A stretch of DNA of 64,000 nucleotides from Alphaproteobacteria bacterium (GCA_965216755.1 CBDCGL010000011.1:4179482-4243481); one strand, 5' to 3'. Counted from the first letter of the stretch, positions 6,128 to 22,898 are shown. A program made the numbers and translations. Notes: generated by a model from the sequence alone, not told the origin.

Positions 6128-6872
6128 GGCAGAAACCGTTGCCAGTGCCATTCCGCTTGCCGGTTCGCGCAATCCGGGTTCGCATTTCGCCAGTCACCTG
6201 CCCGCCACGGACGGCAAGCCGAACATGGCGCGGCAAGCGCTCAGCGGCCCGCGAAAACGCCCGCCGTGCCATATCGCCAACGGTCAAAACCGTTTTGATG
6301 TCGGCACGCTGACGAAACATCTGGTCGCGCGCCGGCCTGGGCGGACGCGAGTCTATGTCGCAGCGCACGAGTGCCCGGCGCCGGTTGGTGCGCCGAAATC
6401 GTACGCCGCTAGGACGCGGTACCTGGGGCGACCCAGCACGCGTATGATTGTAGGAGCCGGGCGGCAAGCACAACCAGTGCTCCATACGATCTGGCATTTC
6501 GTTAGTCTGGTTTCAGTATGCATGCGGTGCAAGGGGGGCATCGCGCGGCGACGGAACGTTGACCCAGCGGCTGCTACCCCTGAATGGCAATTGGCGAGAA
6601 TTTTCGAAAAATACCTATAATATTGATGGAGCGGTAACTAGATACTGTATAACATAGACATGATCGTTATAACATTTCTAAATTGGCTTGGTGGGCGCGC
6701 CAATTGAGTCCAAAACGGTGCCGTGACAATTTTGGGGCGACCACGATTTGCAGTGGCAAAGGGCCTGTCCACGCGTGAACAATGCTGGCGATGAAGATTC
6801 GGGGCGTCGCTCGCTCGATTGCCGAGAATAGCTCGATCGCCGAGAAAAGAAGGTCAGGAAAGCTTTACACCT

Positions 6873-7655
6873 ATGTATGTTCACCCGCTCGGTTGGGACG
6901 CAGCGCCCGCCCGGGAAGCGTATGATCGACAGCAATCTCTGGTGCCGGGATTGTTGCCAGAATATTTTGTTGCCCGGGCCGACACGGAAGACCTGTTGCG
7001 GCAATGTTTCGCGCTCCGATATCAGGTCTATTGTATTGAGAACCAGTTTGAGGATCCGACCGTAAACGTTGCTGGGTTGGAATCCGATATTTATGACGAG
7101 CAAGCGGTTCACGCGCTGGTTATTCATGTCAAGACTGGCATTCCAGTCGCGACCATAAGGCTTATCCTGCCGGTTGCTGCGGATAATCGGACATTGCCCT
7201 TTTTTGACGTGTGCGATCACCTGCGATTTGAAGATTTTTGTATCGCGGCGGGCGAACTCGGAGAGATGTCGCGGTTCGCAATCGGCAAGGCTGCGCGACG
7301 ATTGTCCATGCCGGCCTCAAACGAGCAAGAGCGGGTCGCGCTGGATCCGTTGGGGCGTCTGCGGACGGATGGTCGAATTGCGCCGACCGTCGGGTTGGCG
7401 AGCGCGGTCGTTCGGCTTTGCGTGGAGAACAATGTTCATTACGTTTGCGGTTTGAGCAGTCGCGGTGTTCTCCGGCGCATGGGAGCCCTGGGGATCAAGT
7501 TTGACACCATTGGGCCGGAGGTCGATCATCATGGTTTGCGGTATCCGACCATGACGAATGTGGCCAAGCTCTTGGATGAGACCGCGCGCCTACAACCGGA
7601 CGTTTGGCGCCTTATGTCGTGCGATGGCACGTTACGGAATGTCTTGCATCGGTAA
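6873..7655 (+). CDS. Exosortase/PEP-CTERM system-associated acyltransferase (N-acyl amino acid synthase-like, autoinducer-synthase-related GNAT fold).
   Basis: The motif LRYQVYCIENQFED and the overall length of about 260 aa match the PEP-CTERM-associated acyltransferase family. The ATG at 6873 is preferred over the TTG at 6819. Confidence 0.55.
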   Translation: MYVHPLGWDAAPAREAYDRQQSLVPGLLPEYFVARADTEDLLRQCFALRYQVYCIENQFEDPTVNVAGLESDIYDEQAVHALVIHVKTGIPVATIRLILPVAADNRTLPFFDVCDHLRFEDFCIAAGELGEMSRFAIGKAARRLSMPASNEQERVALDPLGRLRTDGRIAPTVGLASAVVRLCVENNVHYVCGLSSRGVLRRMGALGIKFDTIGPEVDHHGLRYPTMTNVAKLLDETARLQPDVWRLMSCDGTLRNVLHR

Positions 7656-7729
7656 GACATCACGGCTGTGACTCTGGCAATGTTTCGTGTGAGAAGCTTT
7701 TCGGTAAGTCTGTACTGTAAAACGCAGGT

Positions 7730-9424
7730 TTGTCAGTTGGTAACTTCGCCAGTCGAAACCACTGTGGAAATCCAGTGAGTGATCCCATCCCTGCTGCCGC
7801 CTTGCCGGAAAGTCCACGGTTTGTCGACTTGGCTCGTGCCATCGCGCATTGGCGGCGCCGTTTGGGTGACGACGCGGTTCTCGTTGAATCGGCCTGCCGT
7901 CCGTATGAGGCCAATTGCATAGGCTTGCGGCGCTCGATACCCGTTGTTCTGCGGCCGCGTGATGAAACGCAAGTTCGCGACGTTGTCCGAATTGCCAAGC
8001 AATGCAAGGTTTCGATTTACCCGATCAGCACCGGAAAGAATTGGGGCTATGGGGCGGCCTTGCCGACGGCCGAGCGCTCGGTCGTGGTCGATTTGTCGCG
8101 GATGCGCCGGATAAAGGCGATGGAGCCCGAGCTTGGTTTGGTGACTGTTCAACCCGGAGTGACGCAAGGCGACTTGCGGCAATATTTGGATAGGCACAAC
8201 TTGCCGTTTATGGTTCCCGTGACCGGTGCGGGGCCGTCCTGCAGCTTGGTTGGGAATGCGCTTGAGCGCGGCTATGGGATTACACCGCACACCGATCATT
8301 TTCTGGCGGTTCGGTCATTGCGTGCGGTCTTACCCGATGGCCGCGTGTACCAGTCGGCACTGACCGAAGCGGGCGGTGCCCTGGTTGATGGCGCCCACAA
8401 GTGGGGTGTTGGACCTTATCTCGACGGATTGTACAGCCAGGGCGGTTTTGGTGTGGTCACGGAGATGACCATTGCATTGGCATCGGTTCCCGAACGTGTC
8501 GATGTGTTCACGATGGCGATAGAGAACGACGATGACTTGGGCGAGATTGTCGATGCCGTTCGCGACTTGCTGCAAAGGTCGGGCGGCGCCATCGGTGGCA
8601 TCAACCTGATGAACCGTTTAAGGCTCCTGTCGATGCTTCAGCCCTATCCCTGGCAACATGTGCCGCCTGGGGGCGTCATCTCAGACAGGTTGGCCGAACG
8701 CCTTGGCCGCGAAGCGCGGTTGCCCGCTTGGATGGGGCTTGGGGCTATTTACGGCGATCACGAGGTGGTTGCGGGGCTTCGCCAAGCAATGCGGCGGCGG
8801 TTCCGCGGGCTCTCGAAAGACGTCAGGTTTGTTTCCCGGCGCAGCCTCCAATTGACCCGATGGATTGGCGGCCGCGTTCCAGGTAGGTTCGGGCGGATCC
8901 TGCGCCAACGCTTTCTCATGGCGTCGGAAATTTTGGGCATTGCGTCCGGCGTCCCGAGTGAAACACCACTTCGGCTTGCATACTGGAAATCGGCGACGCC
9001 GATTCCAACCATGGGATCGTTGGATCCCGCGCGAGACGGATGTGGCATTGTTTGGTTTGCGCCACTGGTGCCGATGCGGTCGCGGGACGTCCGCAAGTAC
9101 GTCGCGTTGGTCGGCGATGTGTGTCGGGGCTACGGGGTCGAGCCGCTAATTACCCTGACAACTGTTTCGAACCAGTGTTTCGACAGTACGATTCCGATTT
9201 TGTTTCAAGGCGACGATGGGGGCGAAACAGCGCGCCGCTGCTATGAAGACTTGTTTTCAGCATGTCAAAAGCACGGATATCTGCCCTATCGGATGAATGC
9301 GGGCTCGATGCCCTTATATACCGGCAATCGAGAGTCGACATATTGGCATACGGTACAAGAGCTTAAAGCCGCTCTTGATCCGGAGGGCATCTTCTCGCCC
9401 GGACGATACGCGCCGACTTTTTAG
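7730..9424 (+). CDS. FAD-binding oxidoreductase with a VAO/PCMH-type FAD_binding_4 domain.
   Basis: It shows the LRPRDETQVRDVVRIAKQCKVSIYPISTGKNWGYG FAD-binding signature and a long C-terminal substrate domain. The start is uncertain, either the TTG at 7730 or the GTG at 7775. Confidence 0.65.
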   Translation: MSVGNFASRNHCGNPVSDPIPAAALPESPRFVDLARAIAHWRRRLGDDAVLVESACRPYEANCIGLRRSIPVVLRPRDETQVRDVVRIAKQCKVSIYPISTGKNWGYGAALPTAERSVVVDLSRMRRIKAMEPELGLVTVQPGVTQGDLRQYLDRHNLPFMVPVTGAGPSCSLVGNALERGYGITPHTDHFLAVRSLRAVLPDGRVYQSALTEAGGALVDGAHKWGVGPYLDGLYSQGGFGVVTEMTIALASVPERVDVFTMAIENDDDLGEIVDAVRDLLQRSGGAIGGINLMNRLRLLSMLQPYPWQHVPPGGVISDRLAERLGREARLPAWMGLGAIYGDHEVVAGLRQAMRRRFRGLSKDVRFVSRRSLQLTRWIGGRVPGRFGRILRQRFLMASEILGIASGVPSETPLRLAYWKSATPIPTMGSLDPARDGCGIVWFAPLVPMRSRDVRKYVALVGDVCRGYGVEPLITLTTVSNQCFDSTIPILFQGDDGGETARRCYEDLFSACQKHGYLPYRMNAGSMPLYTGNRESTYWHTVQELKAALDPEGIFSPGRYAPTF

Positions 9425-12331: not shown

Positions 12332-13567
12332 CTAGGCTGGCTCGCCGACAGTGTCCTCGACGCGGCAGTTCGGTTCGGGTGCGATCTGGCCCAATCGCTC
12401 GACAATCTCTAAACCATCGACACCACCCCGGGCGGCCACCACGTTCATGGTCACATGTTGGGAGGCTGAGTCGATCGTTGCCGGTCCCGTTGGCGTGTCA
12501 AATGTCAGGCCGCGCAGCCCCGCGATCGTTGGCTCTGGCGCGGCATCGCCGATCCGTCGCCAGGCCGCACGCAGGGCCATCACCGCATTGTAGTGGGTCA
12601 TCGCCAAGTAGCCGATCGGCGTGTCCGCGCCGAACAACCGCCGCACGCGCTGGACGAAACCGGGAACACCCTTTTCTGGGTCCGTGACGGCAAACGGCGT
12701 TGTGGTGTGGATCCGCTCAGCCTGCGCCGGTGTCAGGCGCGCATTCAAGGTCTCGTTATATCCGATCCAACCGATCTGCAGCCGCTCAAGCAGCGCCATT
12801 TCGTCGGCCTGGCGGACAAACTCGCACCCATGGCGGCGCATCACGCAGAACAGCACGACCTCGGCGCCGACTTTGTCAATCCATTTCAGGATCGGGGTGA
12901 AGTCGCGCTCGCCAACGTTGGTTTGGGCTTGGCCCAACACTTCGATATCACGCTCGGCCATGGGAAACCGGATCTGGCGAAACATCGAGGTTTGCCAACT
13001 GGGATACGACCCGACCATGAAATAGCGCTTACCGGCGCCGCCGTCGTCCAGAAACTTTACCAGGCTATGACCATCGTGATTGACGGTCGGGCCGACGGAA
13101 AACAGGGTCGGGTGGCAAAACCGGCCCTCATGGTTGGAGGCATTGACCAGCGGTACTTTGCGGCGGCCCAAATAACGCGCCGCATAGCGTCGGCCGGCCG
13201 AGACCCAGGGGCCGACAAACGCCGCGACACCCTGGTTGTCGATCATGTCATGGCAGACTTTTGGCAAAACCGCCGGGCTGGTGGCGGAGTCGCCATAAAT
13301 CACCTGCAACTCGCGGCCTAGGGCACCGCCGGCCCCATTGATCTCGGCAATCGCGGTTTCGATGCCCATGCGCATCTGCGCGGCATAGGCCTCCGCGTCG
13401 CCGGTCAGAGGCAGCAGGGCACCGATCCGGAGTGGTCCCGGTAGCGCCAAAGCCGGTGCCGCAATGCCAGAGACGCATGCCGCGCCGAGCCCCCGCAGAA
13501 CCGCGCGCCGATTATGGCCGATTGTCGCGGCTCCGCTTCGCAGATATCGCCCGTCATGCCTGCCCAT
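12332..13567 (-). CDS. ABC transporter periplasmic substrate-binding protein of the branched-chain amino acid/amide type.
   Basis: A Tat/Sec-type signal (RRAVLRGLGAACVSGIAAPALA) precedes a type I periplasmic binding fold. The internal start at 13567 is preferred. Confidence 0.65.
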   Translation of the reverse strand: MGRHDGRYLRSGAATIGHNRRAVLRGLGAACVSGIAAPALALPGPLRIGALLPLTGDAEAYAAQMRMGIETAIAEINGAGGALGRELQVIYGDSATSPAVLPKVCHDMIDNQGVAAFVGPWVSAGRRYAARYLGRRKVPLVNASNHEGRFCHPTLFSVGPTVNHDGHSLVKFLDDGGAGKRYFMVGSYPSWQTSMFRQIRFPMAERDIEVLGQAQTNVGERDFTPILKWIDKVGAEVVLFCVMRRHGCEFVRQADEMALLERLQIGWIGYNETLNARLTPAQAERIHTTTPFAVTDPEKGVPGFVQRVRRLFGADTPIGYLAMTHYNAVMALRAAWRRIGDAAPEPTIAGLRGLTFDTPTGPATIDSASQHVTMNVVAARGGVDGLEIVERLGQIAPEPNCRVEDTVGEPA

Positions 13568-13725
13568 GGTCGCCCCATCGATCGCATATGTTTTCCGCCC
13601 GCCAGTCTGCCGGATGCCGTGCGGGGTGAGCAAGCCGATTGCGCCTCAATTCTTTATTCATCTGGCGCTGGCAGCCTAACTGCGGGACCGCACGCAGCGG
13701 TCGCGAGCGAAACACGGAATGCGCC

Positions 13726-14829
13726 ATGGCCAAAGTGCTCACCGACAGCCTTCAAGACCGAATTGCGGATCGGTCGCGCCGCCACATGCGGATCAGCATG
13801 CGCGACCATGGTTGGGTCGTCGCCTATGCCAGCATTTATGTTTTGATCGTCTACGCCTTGGTCTGGGGCAAAGGTCACCAGGTGCCGATCATGTCGTTGG
13901 ACTATGCCGGCATGGCCTTGGTCCCCGTGGTTTTCGCGGTTGCCGCCCTGGCGCTGGGGCATGTCGTCCATCACGTGGCCCATGTCCGGCCGTTCCAGCT
14001 TGGCGCGGTTTGGCGCGCGGTGCGCGACGATGAGCGGTTGACATTGGAGCGGGCCATTTATTGCGCCGTTCCTTTGGTCGTTATCCCTTTTTTTAATAAA
14101 GCCTATTCGACCTTCAAGACCTTGCTTGGCCAATTCCAGCCATACGATTGGGATCCGCAACTGGCGGCATGGGATCAGTGGCTGCATTTCGGCGTGCACC
14201 CGTGGGAATTGCTGCAGCCGTTGCTTGGTTCGCCGCTGATCACGTCGGCCATCAGCTATCTCTATAATTTCTGGTTTGGGCTGATGTTTCTGATCGTCTA
14301 CTGGTTCGTTTTCTCATTGCAGAACCGCGTCCTGCGGATGCGCTATTTGCTCAGCTTTGTGCTGACCTGGTCGCTCTTGGGTAGCCTGGCGGCAGTTTTC
14401 TTCGCGTCCGGCGGGCCCGTCTACTACGGTCATTTTGTCGGCCCCCCCGATCCCTTTGCGCCTTTGATGAGCTATTTGCTCGACGCCGGAGAGGCCTACC
14501 GCAATTGGTCTCTAGAAGCGCAAAACTATCTGTGGCTAATCCACAAGCACGAACTGCTCGATTTCGGCGGGGGTATATCGGCCATGCCCAGCTTGCATGT
14601 TGCCGTCGCCGCGTTGCAGGCGCTCGCCGCCCGTCATGTCAGCCGCCGCATGTGCGCGATCTTGACCATTTATCTGCTCGTGATCATGGTCGGCTCCGTG
14701 CATCTGGGTTGGCACTATGCCATCGATGGTTATGTTTCCTTGATTGCCGTTTTTGTGATCTGGAAGCTGTCCGGACTGGTGATGCGTTGGCATCCGCTGT
14801 CCCGGGCCGACAACACATCCCCCTTATGA
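13726..14829 (+). CDS. PAP2-superfamily integral membrane protein, likely a lipid phosphatase or phosphotransferase.
   Basis: It has multiple TM helices and the PAP2 motifs SMPSLHVA and SVHLGWHYAIDG. The start is taken at the ATG at 13726. Confidence 0.55.
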   Translation: MAKVLTDSLQDRIADRSRRHMRISMRDHGWVVAYASIYVLIVYALVWGKGHQVPIMSLDYAGMALVPVVFAVAALALGHVVHHVAHVRPFQLGAVWRAVRDDERLTLERAIYCAVPLVVIPFFNKAYSTFKTLLGQFQPYDWDPQLAAWDQWLHFGVHPWELLQPLLGSPLITSAISYLYNFWFGLMFLIVYWFVFSLQNRVLRMRYLLSFVLTWSLLGSLAAVFFASGGPVYYGHFVGPPDPFAPLMSYLLDAGEAYRNWSLEAQNYLWLIHKHELLDFGGGISAMPSLHVAVAALQALAARHVSRRMCAILTIYLLVIMVGSVHLGWHYAIDGYVSLIAVFVIWKLSGLVMRWHPLSRADNTSPL

Positions 14830-14891
14830 CTTAAGAAAGCGGCCAAACAGCCCTAATATGGGGGCTCCCGCAATCGGCGCAGGGGGCCGTC

Positions 14892-17363
14892 ATGCCAGCA
14901 GCACAGACACCGCGACCCGAGCAGTTTGAGCAGCTTGGGGCGTTCTACCTTGGGCGGCCGTATGATCTTGGGACCGGACAGGTCGCCGGCGGTCCGCTCT
15001 TATATGACTCTAAGGATCTGACAACACACGCCGTGTGTGTTGGCATGACCGGCAGCGGCAAAACCGGCCTCTGCGTCTCGTTGCTCGAGGAAGCTGCCCT
15101 CGATGGAATTCCGACCCTCGCCATCGACCCGAAAGGTGATCTCGGCAATCTCTTACTGACCTTTCCAAAGTTGACCGCCCAAGATTTCGCGCCGTGGATC
15201 GATCCCGACGAAGCCGTGCGCAAGGGCATGACCGTGGCCGAGCGCGCGGCCGCCGTCGCCGCGCTTTGGAAAAAAGGTCTGGCCGCCTGGGGCCAAGACG
15301 GCGCGCGGATTGGGAAATTGCGCGACGCAGCTGATTTCGCCATCTATACGCCCGGCAGTGATGCCGGCATTCCGGTTTCGGTCTTGCGTTCGTTTGCCGC
15401 ACCGCCGGTTGCCGTGCGCGACGACGGTGATGTGTTTCGCGAACGGGTCGGGGCGACGGTCGCCGGCCTCCTGGCCATGCTCGGTATTGACGCCGATCCT
15501 GTGCAAAGCCGCGAACATGTGCTGTTGGCGAACATCCTTGATCACGCCTGGCACGCGGGCCGTGATCTGACCATCGAATCGCTGATTCGGGATGTACAGG
15601 CGCCGCCGTTCGACAAAGTGGGGATGTTGGATCTTGAAACGGTTTACCCGTCGAAAGATCGCATGGGTCTGGTCATGGCCATCAACAATCTATTGGCGTC
15701 GCCCGGTTTCAGCGCTTGGCGCGATGGCGTGCCGCTGGACATGCAAAGCCTATTGTGGACGCAAGACGGGCGCCCCCGCATTGCAATCATATCGATTGCG
15801 CATCTGAATGATGCTGAGCGCATGTTTATCGTCACCATGCTTCTCAACGAAATGGTGTCGTGGATGCGCAGCCAAAGTGGCACCACCAGTCTGCGGGCGC
15901 TGCTGTACATGGATGAGGTGTTCGGCTATATGCCGCCAACGGCGAACCCGCCGTCGAAAACACCCATGTTGACGCTCATGAAACAGGCCCGAGCCTACGG
16001 TGTCGGCGTTGTCCTGGCGACACAGAACCCGGTTGATTTGGACTACAAAGGCTTGTCAAACGCGGGCACTTGGTTCCTTGGGCGTTTGCAAACCGAACGC
16101 GATAAGTTGCGCGTTCTCGACGGGCTGGAAGGCGCGTCGGCCGCGTCCGGTGCGACGTTCGATCGCGCGCGGGTGGAGACGATTTTGTCAGGATTGGCCA
16201 GCCGTGTTTTCTTGATGAACAACGTCCATGAAGACGCGCCGATCCTTTTTCACACGCGCTGGGCAATGTCCTATTTGCGCGGACCGCTGATCCGCGATCA
16301 GATCAAAGCGCTGATGGCGGGCCGGGCTAAAGCATCAGCACATCCAACGACCGTCGCCGAACCCGAACCGGCGGGTCGGCAAGACCGCGGCAGTGGCACG
16401 TTGCCTATCGTTCCCTCCGTGGCCGCCGAACGTTTTGCCGCGGCTGATTTGGCCGCGCCGGCCGATGCGAATTTATTGTATCGCCCGGCGCTTTTGGGCT
16501 TTGCCGATGTGCACTATGTCAATGCACGGGCGAAGGTCGATACATGGCGCAAGGTGGTGCGCCTTGCCCATTTGCGTGGGGCGGCGCACAATGTTTGGGG
16601 CGATGCGCTTTCCGTTGCGCCCGATGCCCTGCGTCTCGAAGAGGCGCCGCGCGACGGTGCGCGATTTGCGACATTGCCGGCACGTGCCGGTCGCGAGAAA
16701 GTGTATCCGTCGTGGCAGAATGCGCTGCGTCTGGCCATTTATCGCGACTGCGCATTGACTTCATGGAACTGCAAGGTGTTGAAATTAACTTCAACGCCAG
16801 ACGAGAACGAGCGCGCATTCCGCGTTCGCGTCCGTGACGCGGCCCACGAAACGCGTGACTTGGCGATCGAAAAGTTGCGCAACAAATACGCGCCGAAACT
16901 GGCGCGGCTTGAGGAACGCATCCGCAAAGCCGAGGCGCGGATCGCCCGCGAAGCATCGCAATACTCGCAGCAGAAGGTCCAAACCGCGATTTCGATCGGA
17001 GCCACTGTTTTGGGCGCCTTGTTTGGCCGCAAACTGGGCAGTGCGTCGACGGTGGGCCGGGCGACAACCGCGGCACGCGGGGCCAGCCGGGCGGCGCGCG
17101 AACGCCGCGACGTTGCACGCGCGCGCGAAGATCGCGATGCGCTGGAGCGGCAACTCGCCGACTTGTCTGATCGTTTCGACGAAGACGCACGCGCGCTACG
17201 CGAGAAATTTGACCCCGACAACCTCGATATTCGGGAGCGAGCCGTGCGACCACGTAAAGCGGACATCACGATTGAGGCGCTGCATTTGGTGTGGTTGCCA
17301 TGGTGGGTCGACGATGCCGGCGTCGCGCAACCGGCCTATGATTTGGGTGAGGTCGCGTCATGA
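14892..17363 (+). CDS. HerA/FtsK-type P-loop NTPase of the DUF853 / YjgR-like family, carrying a roughly 300-aa coiled-coil C-terminal extension.
   Basis: An AGGGGG Shine-Dalgarno sequence precedes the ATG at 14892. The Walker A is VGMTGSGKTG, followed by IDPKGDLGN, the Walker B LLYMDEVFGY and ATQNPVDLD. The C-terminal third is predicted coiled coil. Confidence 0.7.
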   Translation: MPAAQTPRPEQFEQLGAFYLGRPYDLGTGQVAGGPLLYDSKDLTTHAVCVGMTGSGKTGLCVSLLEEAALDGIPTLAIDPKGDLGNLLLTFPKLTAQDFAPWIDPDEAVRKGMTVAERAAAVAALWKKGLAAWGQDGARIGKLRDAADFAIYTPGSDAGIPVSVLRSFAAPPVAVRDDGDVFRERVGATVAGLLAMLGIDADPVQSREHVLLANILDHAWHAGRDLTIESLIRDVQAPPFDKVGMLDLETVYPSKDRMGLVMAINNLLASPGFSAWRDGVPLDMQSLLWTQDGRPRIAIISIAHLNDAERMFIVTMLLNEMVSWMRSQSGTTSLRALLYMDEVFGYMPPTANPPSKTPMLTLMKQARAYGVGVVLATQNPVDLDYKGLSNAGTWFLGRLQTERDKLRVLDGLEGASAASGATFDRARVETILSGLASRVFLMNNVHEDAPILFHTRWAMSYLRGPLIRDQIKALMAGRAKASAHPTTVAEPEPAGRQDRGSGTLPIVPSVAAERFAAADLAAPADANLLYRPALLGFADVHYVNARAKVDTWRKVVRLAHLRGAAHNVWGDALSVAPDALRLEEAPRDGARFATLPARAGREKVYPSWQNALRLAIYRDCALTSWNCKVLKLTSTPDENERAFRVRVRDAAHETRDLAIEKLRNKYAPKLARLEERIRKAEARIAREASQYSQQKVQTAISIGATVLGALFGRKLGSASTVGRATTAARGASRAARERRDVARAREDRDALERQLADLSDRFDEDARALREKFDPDNLDIRERAVRPRKADITIEALHLVWLPWWVDDAGVAQPAYDLGEVAS

Positions 17364-18061
17364 CGGCGCGTGATCCGGGCGCGACGCCCGTCAAAATGAC
17401 CTATTTTTCTGATGTCTTGTGTATTTGGGCGTATTGCGCCGAGGCCCGCGTCGCGGAAGTGAAGGCACAATTCGGCGACAACGTTGCCATTGACTATCGG
17501 TTTTGCGAGATCTTCGCTGACACCGCCACGCGCGTCGGCCAAGGCTGGGAGGCGCGTGGCGGATATGACGCATTTGGCGCCCATGTGCATGAAGTGGCGG
17601 CCAAATTTGGCCATGTGACCGTCCATCCGGAGCTGTGGATCAAGGTGCGGCCGGCATCGTCGGCCAGTGCCCATATGTTTCTGAAGGCGATCGGTTTATG
17701 GCAGGCGACGAAGGCGCCTGCTCCTACACCCGGGGTGTTGGAGCAGGCTGCGTGGGCCGTGCGGCTTGCTTTCTTCCGCGATGGGCGCGATATCGCGACC
17801 CGCACCACGCAAAACGCTATCGCAGACGAGCTCGAATTGCCCGTTGATGCAATCAATGTGTTTATCGACAACGGCGGGGCGATGGCGGCCTTGTGGCATG
17901 ACCATCAAGCCGCCGAGCACTTTCGAATCGAAGGCAGCCCGACATTCTTGCTCAATGACGGCCGCCAAAAGCTCTATGGCAACGTTGGTTATCGTGTCAT
18001 CGAAGCCAATTTGCGTGAACTGCTCAGCGCGCCCGACGCGGCGCAGGCGAGTTGGTGTTGA
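17360..18061 (+). CDS. DsbA-like thioredoxin-fold protein with a degenerate CxxC, related to the HCCA-isomerase / DSBA-like family.
   Basis: The ATG overlaps the upstream TGA as ATGA. A GGTGAGG Shine-Dalgarno sequence is present. The N-terminal YFSDVLCIWAYC and the protein length fit the DSBA-like family. Confidence 0.6.
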   Translation: MTARDPGATPVKMTYFSDVLCIWAYCAEARVAEVKAQFGDNVAIDYRFCEIFADTATRVGQGWEARGGYDAFGAHVHEVAAKFGHVTVHPELWIKVRPASSASAHMFLKAIGLWQATKAPAPTPGVLEQAAWAVRLAFFRDGRDIATRTTQNAIADELELPVDAINVFIDNGGAMAALWHDHQAAEHFRIEGSPTFLLNDGRQKLYGNVGYRVIEANLRELLSAPDAAQASWC

Positions 18062-18080: not shown

Positions 18081-18557
18081 CTACGCGTCGGCGAGCGCGA
18101 TGACGAAACGAGGCAGGCGGCGGCCGGGAATGGACGCCGATGGCGACTCGCCGGCGCGCACGCAGCCCATGCGCGCGTAAAACCCGGCCGCGTTGGGATC
18201 CGAATCGATCGTCAGTTGTTTGACGCCGGCGCGGTGGGCCTGGTTTGTCAAATGCCGGAAAAGGGCGGCCCCGACGCCCCGGCCAATTTGACTCGGTTCC
18301 ACAAACAGGGCGGCAACCTCGGCCATATCCGGCGCGGTCAGGTCCAGGCTGTAGTAGCCTATGGGGCGGCCGTCCCGCTCGGCTACGAAAACGGTTTCTG
18401 TCGCCAGGCGGGCGGGCGTGATCGTCAATTCCGCGCGGGATCTTGCCATGAAGTCGGCGTCATAGCCCCAATGGGCCTTTGATGCCAAACCGAGGGTCGT
18501 CAGAGGCCCGGCGTCGGCCGTGGTCGCCCGGCGTATGGTGAATTGCGCTAGAGTCAT
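18081..18557 (-). CDS. GNAT family N-acetyltransferase.
   Basis: The motif A region reads QIGRGVGAALFRHL, and the protein is about 160 aa. Confidence 0.65.
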   Translation of the reverse strand: MTLAQFTIRRATTADAGPLTTLGLASKAHWGYDADFMARSRAELTITPARLATETVFVAERDGRPIGYYSLDLTAPDMAEVAALFVEPSQIGRGVGAALFRHLTNQAHRAGVKQLTIDSDPNAAGFYARMGCVRAGESPSASIPGRRLPRFVIALADA

Positions 18558-18582
18558 GTGGTTTGGCCCAAGGATATCGCCG

Positions 18583-19704
18583 ATGGGATGCCCGCTCAAA
18601 TTGTCCGGCCTTGTACTGTTGACGTTGCTTTTATCGCCGGTTGCCGCGCGCGCGGATTCACCGACGCCGCCGGATGTCCGGCTCCCCGCCGGCCATGTCA
18701 GCTTGATCGCCGTGGGGCCCCCGGAAGAAATCGCCGGTTCGTTTGCCCGCCTGTTTCACTACCGATTGTACCTGCCGGCCGACTACCACGCCGCGGCGCC
18801 AGCGCGCTATCCGGTGATGTTCATCGCCTCGCCAAGTGGCCATGCGTCCATGGGCGCCATGGCGGCGCGTTTGCGGCGTGACCGCTGGGTGGTCGTTATG
18901 TTGGTCGAGTCGCGCAACGGTTCGAACGATTGGATGCCCAATTTCCTGGCCGCCCATGATGACGTGATGGGCCGTGTGCGCGTTCATCCTGACATGAAGT
19001 TCTGTACCGGATTGTCCGGCGGCGCGCGCGTATGCAGCGTCTATCCCGGAATGCGCAGCGGGTTTCGCGGCCTGGTCCTACAGGCTGCGGGCTTGTGGAG
19101 CCCGCGCATTTTTGCCGATGGCGCCAACCGGGATTTGGTCATCTACGGCACGTTCGGTGCCTTCGATTTCAATCTCAAATTTGCCCGCCAAGTGCGGCGC
19201 GCGATCCCGCCCGGTGCGCGCGGGCTGGCCGAGGTCTGGGATGGCGGCCACGCTTGGGCGCCGCCCGAAGTATTTGATCGCGCCATGGATTGGGTCGAAG
19301 ACGCTGTCTTTTTGCGCGGCGGTCTGCGCGCCGACCATCGTGATCTGGACCGCTGGTACCTCGACAATCGGCTGGCCGCTTTCGAACGCCTTGCCAACGA
19401 CCCGACCCTGGCGGTGGCGACCATGGCCGACCGGTTGCTCCGGTTTGCCGCCCATCGCCGTCTTGACTTGGATCCATCTATCGCCGGCATGTTGAGGTCG
19501 GCGGCCGATCGTCGGACCGCGGCTGATCGCGCGGCGCAATCATATTATCGGCTCTTGATAGGAGAGCAGGGGCTGCGTGGAAATGGGTTACCGGTGATCG
19601 CCGATCAATATCAGGCCCTGAGTGACCGGTTTCCAAAGACCGATTTTGGTCGGCGCGCCGGCCAGCGGGCGCGGGCCCTTGCCTTTGAAACGGGTCGTCG
19701 ATGA
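18583..19704 (+). CDS. Secreted hypothetical protein, possibly with an esterase/lipase-like fold.
   Basis: An ATG at 18583 follows an AAGGA Shine-Dalgarno sequence. A signal peptide is present, and no confident family assignment could be made. Confidence 0.4.
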   Translation: MGCPLKLSGLVLLTLLLSPVAARADSPTPPDVRLPAGHVSLIAVGPPEEIAGSFARLFHYRLYLPADYHAAAPARYPVMFIASPSGHASMGAMAARLRRDRWVVVMLVESRNGSNDWMPNFLAAHDDVMGRVRVHPDMKFCTGLSGGARVCSVYPGMRSGFRGLVLQAAGLWSPRIFADGANRDLVIYGTFGAFDFNLKFARQVRRAIPPGARGLAEVWDGGHAWAPPEVFDRAMDWVEDAVFLRGGLRADHRDLDRWYLDNRLAAFERLANDPTLAVATMADRLLRFAAHRRLDLDPSIAGMLRSAADRRTAADRAAQSYYRLLIGEQGLRGNGLPVIADQYQALSDRFPKTDFGRRAGQRARALAFETGRR

Positions 19705-19865
19705 TCGAATAGCCGTGGACCCGACCTGTCGATTGGCATTGGCGCGACGATCGGTCATAATTGCGTCGAGCCCGTGGGGACTTCTGGACGCGGACAAGAG
19801 GCCTGGCGCGTTAACGAACGTGCGCCGCGCTTGTGGCGGTGCAGGTAGATGCCGGAGTCCGCGGA

Positions 19866-20453
19866 ATGAGAACTCAGATCATATGCGATATTGCAGCCTT
19901 TGCTGGCGCCTGGACGAAGGCGCTGCGCGTTGGCCGTCGTGGCCATGTGGCCGTCATGCTGGTGACAACTCTAACGATTGGCGGCTGTCAGATTCAGATG
20001 GGCGTCTATGCCGGCTTGACAGAGAGCGATCGGTTGATCATGGCTGACGCGACGCAGCAGGCCTTAGATAACAATCGGACTGGCGAAAGCACCAACTGGT
20101 CCAATGACGAAACCGGCCATTTGGGCACGATCACACCAACCGCGACGCGCAAGTCCTCGGCCGGTGAGGATTGCCGTGGCTATCAAGAAACTTTCACGAT
20201 CGACGGTGAGACCCAACGTGGCGATGGCATTGCTTGCCGCACGGCCAACGGGGTCTGGGAAACCATTGATCTGCGCTATGCCCGCCGCGGCGACCATTAC
20301 GATCCATATGGTTATCCGTACTACTGGTACCCTCCTTACGACTATTGGCCGCCGGATATATTTTATCGGCATCATTTATGGTTTGGTCACCACCGTCGCT
20401 ATCATAACAGGCACGGTGCGACATTCGGCTTCCATTTTGGCCATTATTTCTAG
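19866..20453 (+). CDS. Lipoprotein with a surface-antigen-like central region and a Tyr/Trp/His/Pro-rich C-terminal tail.
   Basis: The lipobox is LTIGGC. The central region reads CRGYQETFTIDGETQRGDGIACRTANGVWE, and the tail reads YPYYWYPPYDYWPPDIFYRHHLWFGHHRRYHNRHG. Confidence 0.5.
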   Translation: MRTQIICDIAAFAGAWTKALRVGRRGHVAVMLVTTLTIGGCQIQMGVYAGLTESDRLIMADATQQALDNNRTGESTNWSNDETGHLGTITPTATRKSSAGEDCRGYQETFTIDGETQRGDGIACRTANGVWETIDLRYARRGDHYDPYGYPYYWYPPYDYWPPDIFYRHHLWFGHHRRYHNRHGATFGFHFGHYF

Positions 20454-20858: not shown

Positions 20859-22898
20859 ATGGCGCTGATCAGCAAAAATTGGGGCTCTCGACAATTCGGC
20901 CCGATGAATCATGGGGAGGACGCACGCGCCATGGAAGCCACGACCGCGCTGCACGAAAAACTCTATCGCACAATGGTGCAAATTCGCGCCTTTGAGGACC
21001 GTACGACCAAATTGTTCAATGACGGTTTCGTCAAAGGCACGGCCCACAGTTATATGGGCGAGGAAGCGGTGGCGGCCGGCGCGTGCGCCGCATTGCGTGA
21101 GGACGATTATATCGCCAGCTATCACCGCGGCCATGGCCATTGCATCGCCAAGGGCGCCGATCTCAATCTGATGATGGCGGAACTCATGGGCCGCGACACC
21201 GGCTATTGCCGGGGTCTTGGTGGCTCGATGCACATCGCCGACCTTAAGCTCAATATTCTCGGCGCCAATGGCATCGTCGGCGCCGGTATGCCGCTGGCGA
21301 CGGGCGCCGGATTGGCGGCGCGCATTCGCGACTCGGACCAGGTGTCGATCGCCTTTTTCGGCGATGGCGCCAGCAGCCAAGGGGTTTTCCACGAATCGCT
21401 GAACTTGGCCAAGGTCTGGAAACTGCCGGTTATTTTTATTTGTGAAAACAACCAATACGGCTTGTCGACCGCGTTCAAGAATATATCCGCGGTGGATCGG
21501 GTCTCGACGCGGTCGACCGCCTACGACGTGCCGGGAACGACCGTTGATGGCAATGATGTATTGGCCGTGCACGAAGCTGTCAGCGCTGCCGTGGTGCGGG
21601 CCCGTTCGGGTGAGGGGCCGAGTTTGATCGAAGCGCTGACCTATCGCTGGGGCCAACACAGCATGCGCGCAAACCTGCCCGATCCGCGTGCGGACAAGGA
21701 AATCGAGCAATGGATGGCCCGTGATCCGATCCCGCGCTTCGAGGATGTGCTCGAAGAGCGCAAGATCTTAAGCCGCGCGCGCATGGATGAGATCAAGGCC
21801 GAGGCAGAAGTCGCTATGGACTCGGCCGTTGCGTTTGGTGAGAAAAGCCCGGAGCCGACGGTCGCGATGATGGAACAGGCCGTGTACGCGCCCCATGTGC
21901 TGCACAATGCACCGCCGGCCGAAGGCCGCAGCTTGAGCTTTCCCGACGCCCTGAATGAAGCCATGCGCCAGGAGATGGCGCGCGACGAGAGTGTCTTTTT
22001 GATGGGCGAGGATGTGGGAAAAACCGGCGGTATCTTCACCGTGTCGAAGGGCTTGCTCGACGAATTCGGGCCCGAGCGCGTGCGCGACACACCGATTGCC
22101 GAGGCGACCTTCTCGGGCGCCGGCGTGGGCGCCGCGATCGCCGGCATGCGCCCGGTCGTCGAAGTCCAGATCTTCGACTTCGTCAGCCTGATGATGGACA
22201 TGATCGTCAACCAGGCGGCCAAGTTCCGCTACATGCTGGGCGGTAAGCCGACCGTGCCATTGGTCATCCGCGGCCCGCAAGGTGGCGGCATACGCCTTGC
22301 CGCGCAGCATTCGCAAAGCCTGGAAGCCTGGTTTACCCATGTGCCGGGCTTGGTGGTGGTGGCACCATCGACGCCCTACGACGCCAAGGGCTTGCTGACC
22401 GCCGCAATCCGTGACGACAACCCGGTGATTTTCTTGGAGCACAAGCTGCTCTATCTCGGCCAAACCGGCCCGGTCCCGGAAGATCCCTACGCGATTCCGC
22501 TGGGCAAGGCTGACGTCAAACAAGAGGGCACCGACGTCACCATTGTTGCGACCCAAATGATGGTGCATCGTGCCTTGGCGGCCGCCAACGATCTGGCCCG
22601 CGCCGGGATCAGCGCGGAGGTGATCGATCCGCGTACTTTGGTACCCCTGGATCTTGACACCATCGTGGCCTCGGTGCGCAAGACCAATCGGGTCGTGATT
22701 GCGCATGAGGCGGTTAAACGCGGCGGCTATGGCGCGGAGATCTCGGCGCAGATCACCGAGAACGCCTTTGATTATTTGGACGCGCCGATTGTCCGGGTTG
22801 GCGCCCGTGCTGTGCCGATGCCTTACAATGACGAGCTGGAACGGTCGGTGATCCCAACCCAGCAGGACATTGTCGACGCCGCCAAGGGCTTGTTCTAG
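20859..22898 (+). CDS. Fused alpha/beta E1 component of a thiamine-diphosphate-dependent 2-oxoacid (pyruvate/acetoin/branched-chain) dehydrogenase.
   Basis: The N-terminal half has the E1-alpha TPP-binding region (GDGASSQGVFHESLN). The C-terminal half is E1-beta transketolase-like (FLMGEDVG... RDTPIAE). Together they make 679 aa. Confidence 0.8.
   Translation: MALISKNWGSRQFGPMNHGEDARAMEATTALHEKLYRTMVQIRAFEDRTTKLFNDGFVKGTAHSYMGEEAVAAGACAALREDDYIASYHRGHGHCIAKGADLNLMMAELMGRDTGYCRGLGGSMHIADLKLNILGANGIVGAGMPLATGAGLAARIRDSDQVSIAFFGDGASSQGVFHESLNLAKVWKLPVIFICENNQYGLSTAFKNISAVDRVSTRSTAYDVPGTTVDGNDVLAVHEAVSAAVVRARSGEGPSLIEALTYRWGQHSMRANLPDPRADKEIEQWMARDPIPRFEDVLEERKILSRARMDEIKAEAEVAMDSAVAFGEKSPEPTVAMMEQAVYAPHVLHNAPPAEGRSLSFPDALNEAMRQEMARDESVFLMGEDVGKTGGIFTVSKGLLDEFGPERVRDTPIAEATFSGAGVGAAIAGMRPVVEVQIFDFVSLMMDMIVNQAAKFRYMLGGKPTVPLVIRGPQGGGIRLAAQHSQSLEAWFTHVPGLVVVAPSTPYDAKGLLTAAIRDDNPVIFLEHKLLYLGQTGPVPEDPYAIPLGKADVKQEGTDVTIVATQMMVHRALAAANDLARAGISAEVIDPRTLVPLDLDTIVASVRKTNRVVIAHEAVKRGGYGAEISAQITENAFDYLDAPIVRVGARAVPMPYNDELERSVIPTQQDIVDAAKGLF

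Follow-up and report, generated by a model that had tools for sequence, protein, structure and literature searches.

Do three bacterial genes lying side by side on one strand, which encode an integral membrane protein of the PAP2_3 family, a long P-loop ATPase of the HerA/FtsK superfamily and a DsbA-like protein, make up a new molecular system, or did they come together by accident in a single genome? The question is posed by positions 13726 to 18061 of a 64,000-nucleotide stretch of DNA from an Alphaproteobacteria bacterium (GCA_965216755.1 CBDCGL010000011.1:4179482-4243481), which in its full length is called here the window. A first-pass annotation, made from the sequence alone, had read these genes as an operon and as a new HerA plus DsbA-like (plus PAP2) module. 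Open reading frames (ORFs) and Pfam searches bear out the three plus-strand genes that it described, located at 13726..14829 (PAP2_3 protein, 367 amino acids [aa], PF14378), 14892..17363 (ATPase, 823 aa) and 17360..18061 (a cytoplasmic, FrnE-like DsbA-fold protein of 233 aa without a signal peptide). Equally, the ATGA at 17360..17363, in which the TGA stop of the ATPase gene overlaps the ATG start of the DsbA-like gene, is there in the sequence. The module is another matter, as the three genes were not found together in any of the related loci of the ATPase (0/80), of the DsbA-like protein (0/86) or of the PAP2 protein (0/3), and with no recurrence in the sampled genomes their adjacency looks like a local accident and not like a new molecular system.

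Gene neighbourhoods in other genomes

Relatives of the ATPase are encoded in at least 598 species-representative genomes, from which the best 80 species-level loci, with 51-63% identity and coming from many phyla, were taken together with 6-kb flanks. In tblastn searches with the window proteins (E <= 1e-3), no PAP2 or DsbA-like gene appeared within 6 kb of the ATPase in any of the 80, and the same result was obtained when the flanking ORFs were searched at E <= 1 with a hidden Markov model of the DsbA-like family and, for the PAP2 protein, with phmmer. Moreover, all-against-all clustering of the ORFs flanking the ATPase in these loci revealed no conserved neighbour family, and the genes directly up- and downstream of it vary in family, strand and distance. 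Conservation of the gene neighbourhood had been proposed as the check on the claimed module, and its outcome is that ATPase homologues never stand beside a DsbA-like gene in the 80 loci, the very result that the first-pass annotation had named as refuting the module. The two closest ATPase homologues with loci examined (63-64% identity) are likewise without PAP2 and DsbA-like partners. A DSBA-domain gene does lie 1.5 kb from the close homologue P0003; it is on the opposite strand, encodes a cysteine-less protein of the HCCA-isomerase type with a BLASTP E of 0.8, and was set aside as a non-orthologous coincidence.

Besides uvrA, only the genes for a small membrane protein and for a small Gly-rich protein recur beside the ATPase, all of which we read as lineage synteny. 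In this regard, uvrA was found 1-3 kb upstream of the ATPase in ten Nitrospirota loci (L019, L023, L030, L033, L034, L041, L050, L051, L060 and L076), three of them with uvrC also nearby, and this uvrA linkage was not seen in other phyla. The Gly-rich protein (77-158 aa) is encoded immediately downstream of the ATPase in L029, L030, L038, L048 and L070 (at ~8.4-9.2 kb), as well as in L024, L025 and L073, and is the sole same-strand neighbour of the ATPase that recurs beyond one lineage. Another small observation concerns a 17-kDa-antigen/glycine-zipper protein encoded 1.8 kb downstream of the cluster (19833-20453), since a 39-45% identical protein of this kind is found directly downstream (7245-7745) of the 63%-identical ATPase of locus L168. 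As it is absent from every other one of 83 ATPase loci, this is probably residual synteny or coincidence.

Reciprocal searches gave the same picture. The ATPase and PAP2 genes are both absent from all 86 loci of the DsbA-like family, which show no conserved neighbour of any other kind either; the DsbA-like ORF was called in 77 of these 86, where the DNA upstream of it measures at least 1 kb in 45 and at least 2.5 kb in 23. Three DsbA-like contexts inspected singly were also devoid of ATPase and PAP2 genes. For the PAP2 protein, three homologue loci representing two distinct contexts lacked either partner, and in them a convergent gene comes next.

The spacing of the three genes has to be read against that of their surroundings. 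In 13 of the 33 same-strand neighbouring ORF pairs of the window, the two ORFs overlap or stand no more than 9 nt apart, and with tight junctions so frequent the ATGA overlap alone is no more than chance gives. The PAP2 and ATPase genes are separated by a spacer of 62 nt (14830..14891, plus strand) with a GGGGG run resembling a Shine-Dalgarno sequence 7 nt ahead of the ATG of the ATPase, and neither a promoter-like or terminator-like site nor an Rfam match was found inside it. Searches of the gaps for RNA elements, promoters and terminators yielded nothing exceeding background.

The catalytic core of the ATPase and its family

The first-pass annotation described an 823-aa ATPase with a complete P-loop core, which is accurate, as its four quoted motifs are all in place: the Walker A GMTGSGKTG at residues 51-59 (15042..15068, plus strand), flanked by the invariant residues C49 and C61; IDPKGD at residues 78-83; the Walker B YMDEVFGY at residues 339-346 (15906..15929, plus strand), with invariant D341 and E342; and the sensor-strand motif ATQNPVDLD at residues 376-384 (16017..16043, plus strand), which aligns with HerA and YjgR. 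All four are invariant across 24 homologues, as is in the whole family the Walker B context LLYMDE at 336-342. In the same alignment of 24 homologues R398, R403 and R407 are invariant, and they are listed as candidate arginine fingers only. The two cysteines beside the P-loop, C49 (15036-15038) and C61 (15072-15074), are kept in 24/24 aligned homologues from several phyla, and from their position it is conceivable that they could form a redox-sensitive pair working as a redox switch.

Family profiles place this core in the superfamily and not in any of its named families. As had been expected, HerA/DUF853 profiles do match the N-terminal domain, if weakly, and so do the structures of HerA, TrwB and VirB4. 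Pfam DUF87 and HerA_C are hit with E ~1e-5 to 1e-6 over some 45 residues around Walker A; DUF87 reaches 26.3 bits at residues 40-88 only (~49 residues), and HerA_C (PF05872, DUF853) reaches 25.6 bits, nominally over its 22-bit cut-off, while covering just profile positions 21-63 of 502. NCBIfam and PADLOC matches fall far under the family thresholds: HerA_antiphage reaches 25 bits where its cut-off is 800, and PADLOC gives weak partial matches (E ~1e-11) to HerA, which span the Walker B-sensor region only, and to mad8, at residues 43-394. Matches to PHROG are weak and partial as well. Among sequences in the PDB, HerA proteins and DotL are matched with E 1e-6 to 1e-3, and YjgR by phmmer with E 0.074.

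A full-length AlphaFold2 (AF2) model of the ATPase has a mean predicted local distance difference test (pLDDT) of 69.7, with a core of low confidence. Its top Foldseek matches are HerA, DotL, TrwB and VirB4 (E 1e-5 to 2e-3, probability 1.0), the TM-scores relative to the target being 0.41-0.52 for TrwB, DotL and VirB4. In the model, Walker A is separated from Walker B by an insertion that is for the most part alpha-helical, and no HAS-barrel is seen at the N-terminus, where there are ~45 residues before the Walker A strand and two short strands.

The family is large, with more than 8000 clusters at 90% identity, and its full-length identity amounts to 57-64% across Gemmatimonadota, Planctomycetota, Nitrospirota, Acidobacteriota, Chloroflexota, Myxococcota and others. 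Databases name these relatives 'ATP-binding protein' or 'DUF87 domain-containing protein', and a search of the literature on YjgR or on this ATPase family retrieved nothing functional. Altogether, these comparisons identify the ATPase as a member of the HerA/FtsK superfamily that is remotely related to the named families, and put it outside HerA sensu stricto, DUF853/YjgR, the type IV coupling protein/VirB4 group and any PADLOC defence family. Judged by its conservation and gene contexts, the family is a very large and highly conserved one, normally encoded alone and functionally uncharacterised.

A family-specific C-terminal module

Residues 500-823 of the ATPase (324 aa; 16389..17363, plus strand) form a C-terminal module that is specific to the family. 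The first-pass annotation had proposed a coiled-coil extension of roughly 300 aa; the long extension is real, and what it contains is a beta-sheet subdomain together with one long helical hairpin. A structure prediction of this part, as then advised, gave a confident AF2 model (pLDDT 86.2) with a curved beta-sheet from which an antiparallel coiled-coil hairpin of ~130 residues (~70 + 55) projects, its helices lying at ~640-710 and 719-772. No Pfam family matches the module, and searches of PDB and BFVD gave no structural counterpart under E 0.01, returning generic coiled-coil hairpins only. It is found at the protein C-terminus in 2509 representative proteins; the matches in the representative library are mostly N-terminally truncated fragments, from which the occurrence of the module without the ATPase is not readable.

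The tip of the hairpin carries the motif TAISIGATVLGALFGRK (residues 698-714; 16983..17033, plus strand), hydrophobic and Gly-rich, followed by a basic loop rich in Gly, Ser and Thr. Among the 24 homologues S701, G703, L707, G708, A709, L710, G712 and R713 are invariant, which gives the family motif SxGxxxLGALxGRK. The tip has a mean Kyte-Doolittle hydropathy of 1.7 over 15 residues, and the highest 19-residue window of the ATPase reaches 1.43, under the transmembrane cut-off of 1.6; the hydrophobic stretch of the tip is too short for a transmembrane helix.

A DsbA-like protein with one active-site cysteine

The third gene encodes a protein with a clear Pfam DSBA domain (PF01323; 42.9 bits against a cut-off of 25.6, E 5.9e-11, residues 15-216). 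Its N-terminus, MTARDPGATPVKMTYFSD, shows no hydrophobic leader, signal peptide or lipobox. The active-site region YFSDVLCIWAY (residues 15-25; 17402..17434, plus strand) follows a family motif, YFSDxLCxWAY, that is invariant and contains a single active-site cysteine in C21-I-W-A24, the second CxxC position being occupied by Ala. The first-pass annotation had called C-IWAY-C a degenerate CxxC; the letters are present and a CxxC active site is indeed absent from the protein, and yet the second cysteine of that reading, C26 (+5), is not conserved among 15 homologues. The invariant cysteines are C21 and C233, the latter being the final residue of the protein and part of an invariant C-terminal ASWC (residues 230-233; 18047..18058, plus strand). 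The family has more than 3000 homologues, and the best PDB sequence match of the protein, a weak one (E 0.007), is FrnE of D. radiodurans. In a single case (L084, 3549-5660; L085), a homologue follows 1-2 nt after methyltransferase and PEMT (phospholipid methyltransferase) genes, that is, in a lipid-related context.

The PAP2_3 protein and the surroundings of the cluster

The first gene encodes a polytopic membrane protein with ~7 hydrophobic segments, counted as crude hydropathy peaks, and a score of 90.2 bits (cut-off 27, E 1.9e-25) makes its membership of Pfam PAP2_3 (PF14378) clear. The best homologue is 48% identical, and the named homologues belong to Magnetovibrio, which points to a host among the Alphaproteobacteria. 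The exact sequences of all three proteins are already on record, from a single contig of 4.85 Mb, with the recorded start of the PAP2 protein at the same ATG, and each of them is a singleton at 90% identity.

The cluster lies between a divergent gene for a periplasmic-binding protein on its upstream side (12332-13633, minus strand) and a GNAT gene (18081-18599, minus strand) that converges on it from downstream. At the locus no tRNA, integrase, flanking direct or inverted repeats, GC shift or skew discontinuity was detected, nor a defence-island context, the genes around being metabolic or signalling ones. As longest ORFs, the GNAT gene and a plus-strand ORF of 394 aa without Pfam match (18520-19704) overlap head-to-head by ~80 nt, so that one of the two start codons probably lies further in. 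Farther away, a single ORF of 679 aa (20859-22898) is a fusion of 2-oxoacid dehydrogenase E1 alpha (E1_dh) and E1 beta (Transket_pyr + Transketolase_C), and at 6819-9424 an Acetyltransf_5 gene, for a GNAT resembling N-acyl amino acid/autoinducer synthases, is followed on the same strand by that of a 564-aa FAD_binding_4 oxidase.

One neighbourhood, several explanations

We consider it likely that the three genes are independent and adjacent by chance in this one genome, without forming a dedicated system. Under this reading, the product of gene 1 would be a polytopic membrane enzyme, with its PAP2_3 domain belonging to the type of the lipid phosphatases/phosphotransferases. The ATPase would be cytoplasmic and, by homology, most likely ring-forming; by hydrolysing ATP where its subunits meet (K57 of Walker A, D341/E342 of Walker B), it would draw a polymer through a central pore or remodel it there, and six hairpins with their hydrophobic, Gly-rich and basic-flanked tips might attach the ring to the membrane or to a partner. 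The DsbA-like protein would act as a cytoplasmic, FrnE-like thiol enzyme with C21 in CxWA as its single active-site cysteine, which C233, by analogy with the FrnE tail, probably serves as a resolving or regenerating thiol. The ATGA overlap makes co-transcription of genes 2 and 3 probable in this genome, and this reflects the compaction of the local genome and not a conserved functional partnership.

Several points weigh against chance adjacency. All three genes run in the same direction, the first two 62 nt apart and the last two overlapping by 4 nt, between divergent and convergent borders, and such an arrangement makes a single transcript, and some functional link specific to the lineage, possible. 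With all three proteins being singletons at 90% identity, there is no close relative to show whether the arrangement persists. The ATPase loci surveyed were the best 80 of ~600 or more, and many contigs with the DsbA-like gene are short. On the ATPase itself, the substrate, the oligomeric state and the docking to the membrane are what we infer, and the full-length AF2 model is of low confidence in its core (pLDDT 69.7).

The main rival is an operon specific to the lineage, in which the products of the three genes would have been recruited into one unit for the envelope, for lipids or for redox stress; C49/C61 of the ATPase might for instance be kept reduced by the DsbA-like protein, or the membrane beside the PAP2 enzyme might be where the ATPase works. 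Besides co-orientation, the short gap, the ATGA overlap and the operon-like borders, such a unit would suit the invariant cysteines flanking Walker A, a hydrophobic hairpin tip that suggests a membrane location of the ATPase, and the DsbA-like homologue encoded directly after lipid-methyltransferase genes. However, the combination recurred in none of the 80 + 86 + 3 related loci, tight junctions are frequent in the window, and the cysteines of the ATPase are kept in hundreds of genomes without an adjoining DsbA-like gene, so that we regard the operon as unlikely. An arrival of the three genes together, as cargo of a horizontally acquired mobile island, would fit with nearest relatives that for all three stand at 48-65% identity, largely in other phyla or in metagenomes, and with their singleton status at 90% identity. 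But no close relative of the genome turned up in any search, and it is perhaps just poorly sampled; moreover, three families that are unlinked elsewhere are not a travelling unit and, as no integrase, tRNA, flanking repeats or GC/skew discontinuity accompany them, a shared acquisition seems very improbable.

The remaining proposal is an anti-phage defence system built on HerA, as in Sir2-HerA or DUF4297-HerA, whose effector would be either the C-terminal module of the ATPase or the neighbouring genes. The weak PADLOC matches to HerA models and mad8 point in this direction, and the hydrophobic tip of the hairpin might in principle act on membranes; nevertheless, no match comes near a family threshold (25 versus 800 bits for HerA_antiphage), no nuclease, Sir2 or DUF4297 partner occurs in the 80 loci, 57-64% is a higher identity between phyla than is typical of immune genes, and the neighbours are housekeeping or metabolic genes, with no island signature found. 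We give defence hardly any credence. Chance adjacency is thus the explanation that we retain for the locus as a whole.

Significance and relation to known systems

Had the three-gene module been real, a HerA-type motor would have gained a partner of a new kind; if it is not, the locus itself is an ordinary juxtaposition, and newness is at the level of families only, namely in the unmatched C-terminal module of the ATPase and in the CxWA...ASWC variant of DsbA. As a family without partners, the ATPase offers a clean target for the structure and function of a 'solo' HerA-like motor. The DsbA-fold family with CxWA and a terminal cysteine is widespread and cytoplasmic, and would extend the idea of the regenerating tail of FrnE. 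A bolder proposal, which we put forward as a doubtful conjecture, is that of an undescribed class of stand-alone HerA/FtsK-type ring ATPases in hundreds of species of many phyla, with the hairpin tip acting as a membrane tether or a built-in effector and, optionally, with C49/C61 as a redox switch that in this lineage would be reset by the co-translated one-cysteine DsbA protein.

Among known systems, HerA (HerA-NurA; Sir2-HerA, DUF4297-HerA) comes closest to the ATPase, as it gives the best PDB matches in sequence and in structure. Both have a RecA-like P-loop core that carries Walker A, a Walker B with DE and a TQNP-type strand, and they presumably share the form of a ring translocase. In contrast to HerA, the window ATPase lacks the N-terminal HAS-barrel, its Walker A beginning at residue 51; no nuclease, Sir2 or DUF4297 partner of its family is found in the 80 loci or in the window, and it carries its own 324-aa beta/coiled-coil C-terminal module. 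YjgR of E. coli (DUF853; PDB 11kk) is similar in being a stand-alone HerA-clade ATPase of unknown function. The two share a stretch with Walker A and D-x-KGDL (41% over 39 aa by BLASTP) and the region from Walker B to QNP (hhalign probability 66%, 116 columns), but YjgR is made of 500 aa without the C-terminal module, compared with 823 aa for the window ATPase. The name 'DUF853/YjgR-like' given in the first-pass annotation therefore holds at the level of the superfamily and fails at that of the family, where the match covers 43/502 profile positions and the similarity to YjgR is local; on these alignments, YjgR is a superfamily-level relative of the ATPase and not a member of the same family. 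The type IV coupling proteins and VirB4 (TrwB, DotL/IcmO) show a comparable fold similarity and also have a helical insertion between Walker A and B, a likeness to which weak matches to TraD and CedB can be added. The ATPase differs from them in having no N-terminal transmembrane anchor and in its C-terminus, and no conjugation or type IV secretion system genes were found near it.

The PAP2_3 protein resembles the phosphatases/phosphotransferases of its family (PF14378) in Pfam membership and polytopic topology, whereas its nearest homologue is just 48% identical and the neighbours of its homologues are unrelated. The DsbA-like protein is alike to FrnE in its DsbA fold, in lacking a signal peptide and in a C-terminal tail that bears cysteine. 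In D. radiodurans FrnE, the C-terminal CxxxxC tail is placed at the active site of an adjacent molecule, where Cys244 forms a disulfide with Cys22, and the tail is required for efficient regeneration of the active site (PMC8945050). The active site is CPWC in FrnE and a one-cysteine C-I-W-A in the window protein, whose tail has, instead of CxxxxC, one terminal cysteine (ASWC). By analogy, the DsbA-like family may thus represent a one-cysteine variant of the FrnE-type regenerating C-terminal tail.

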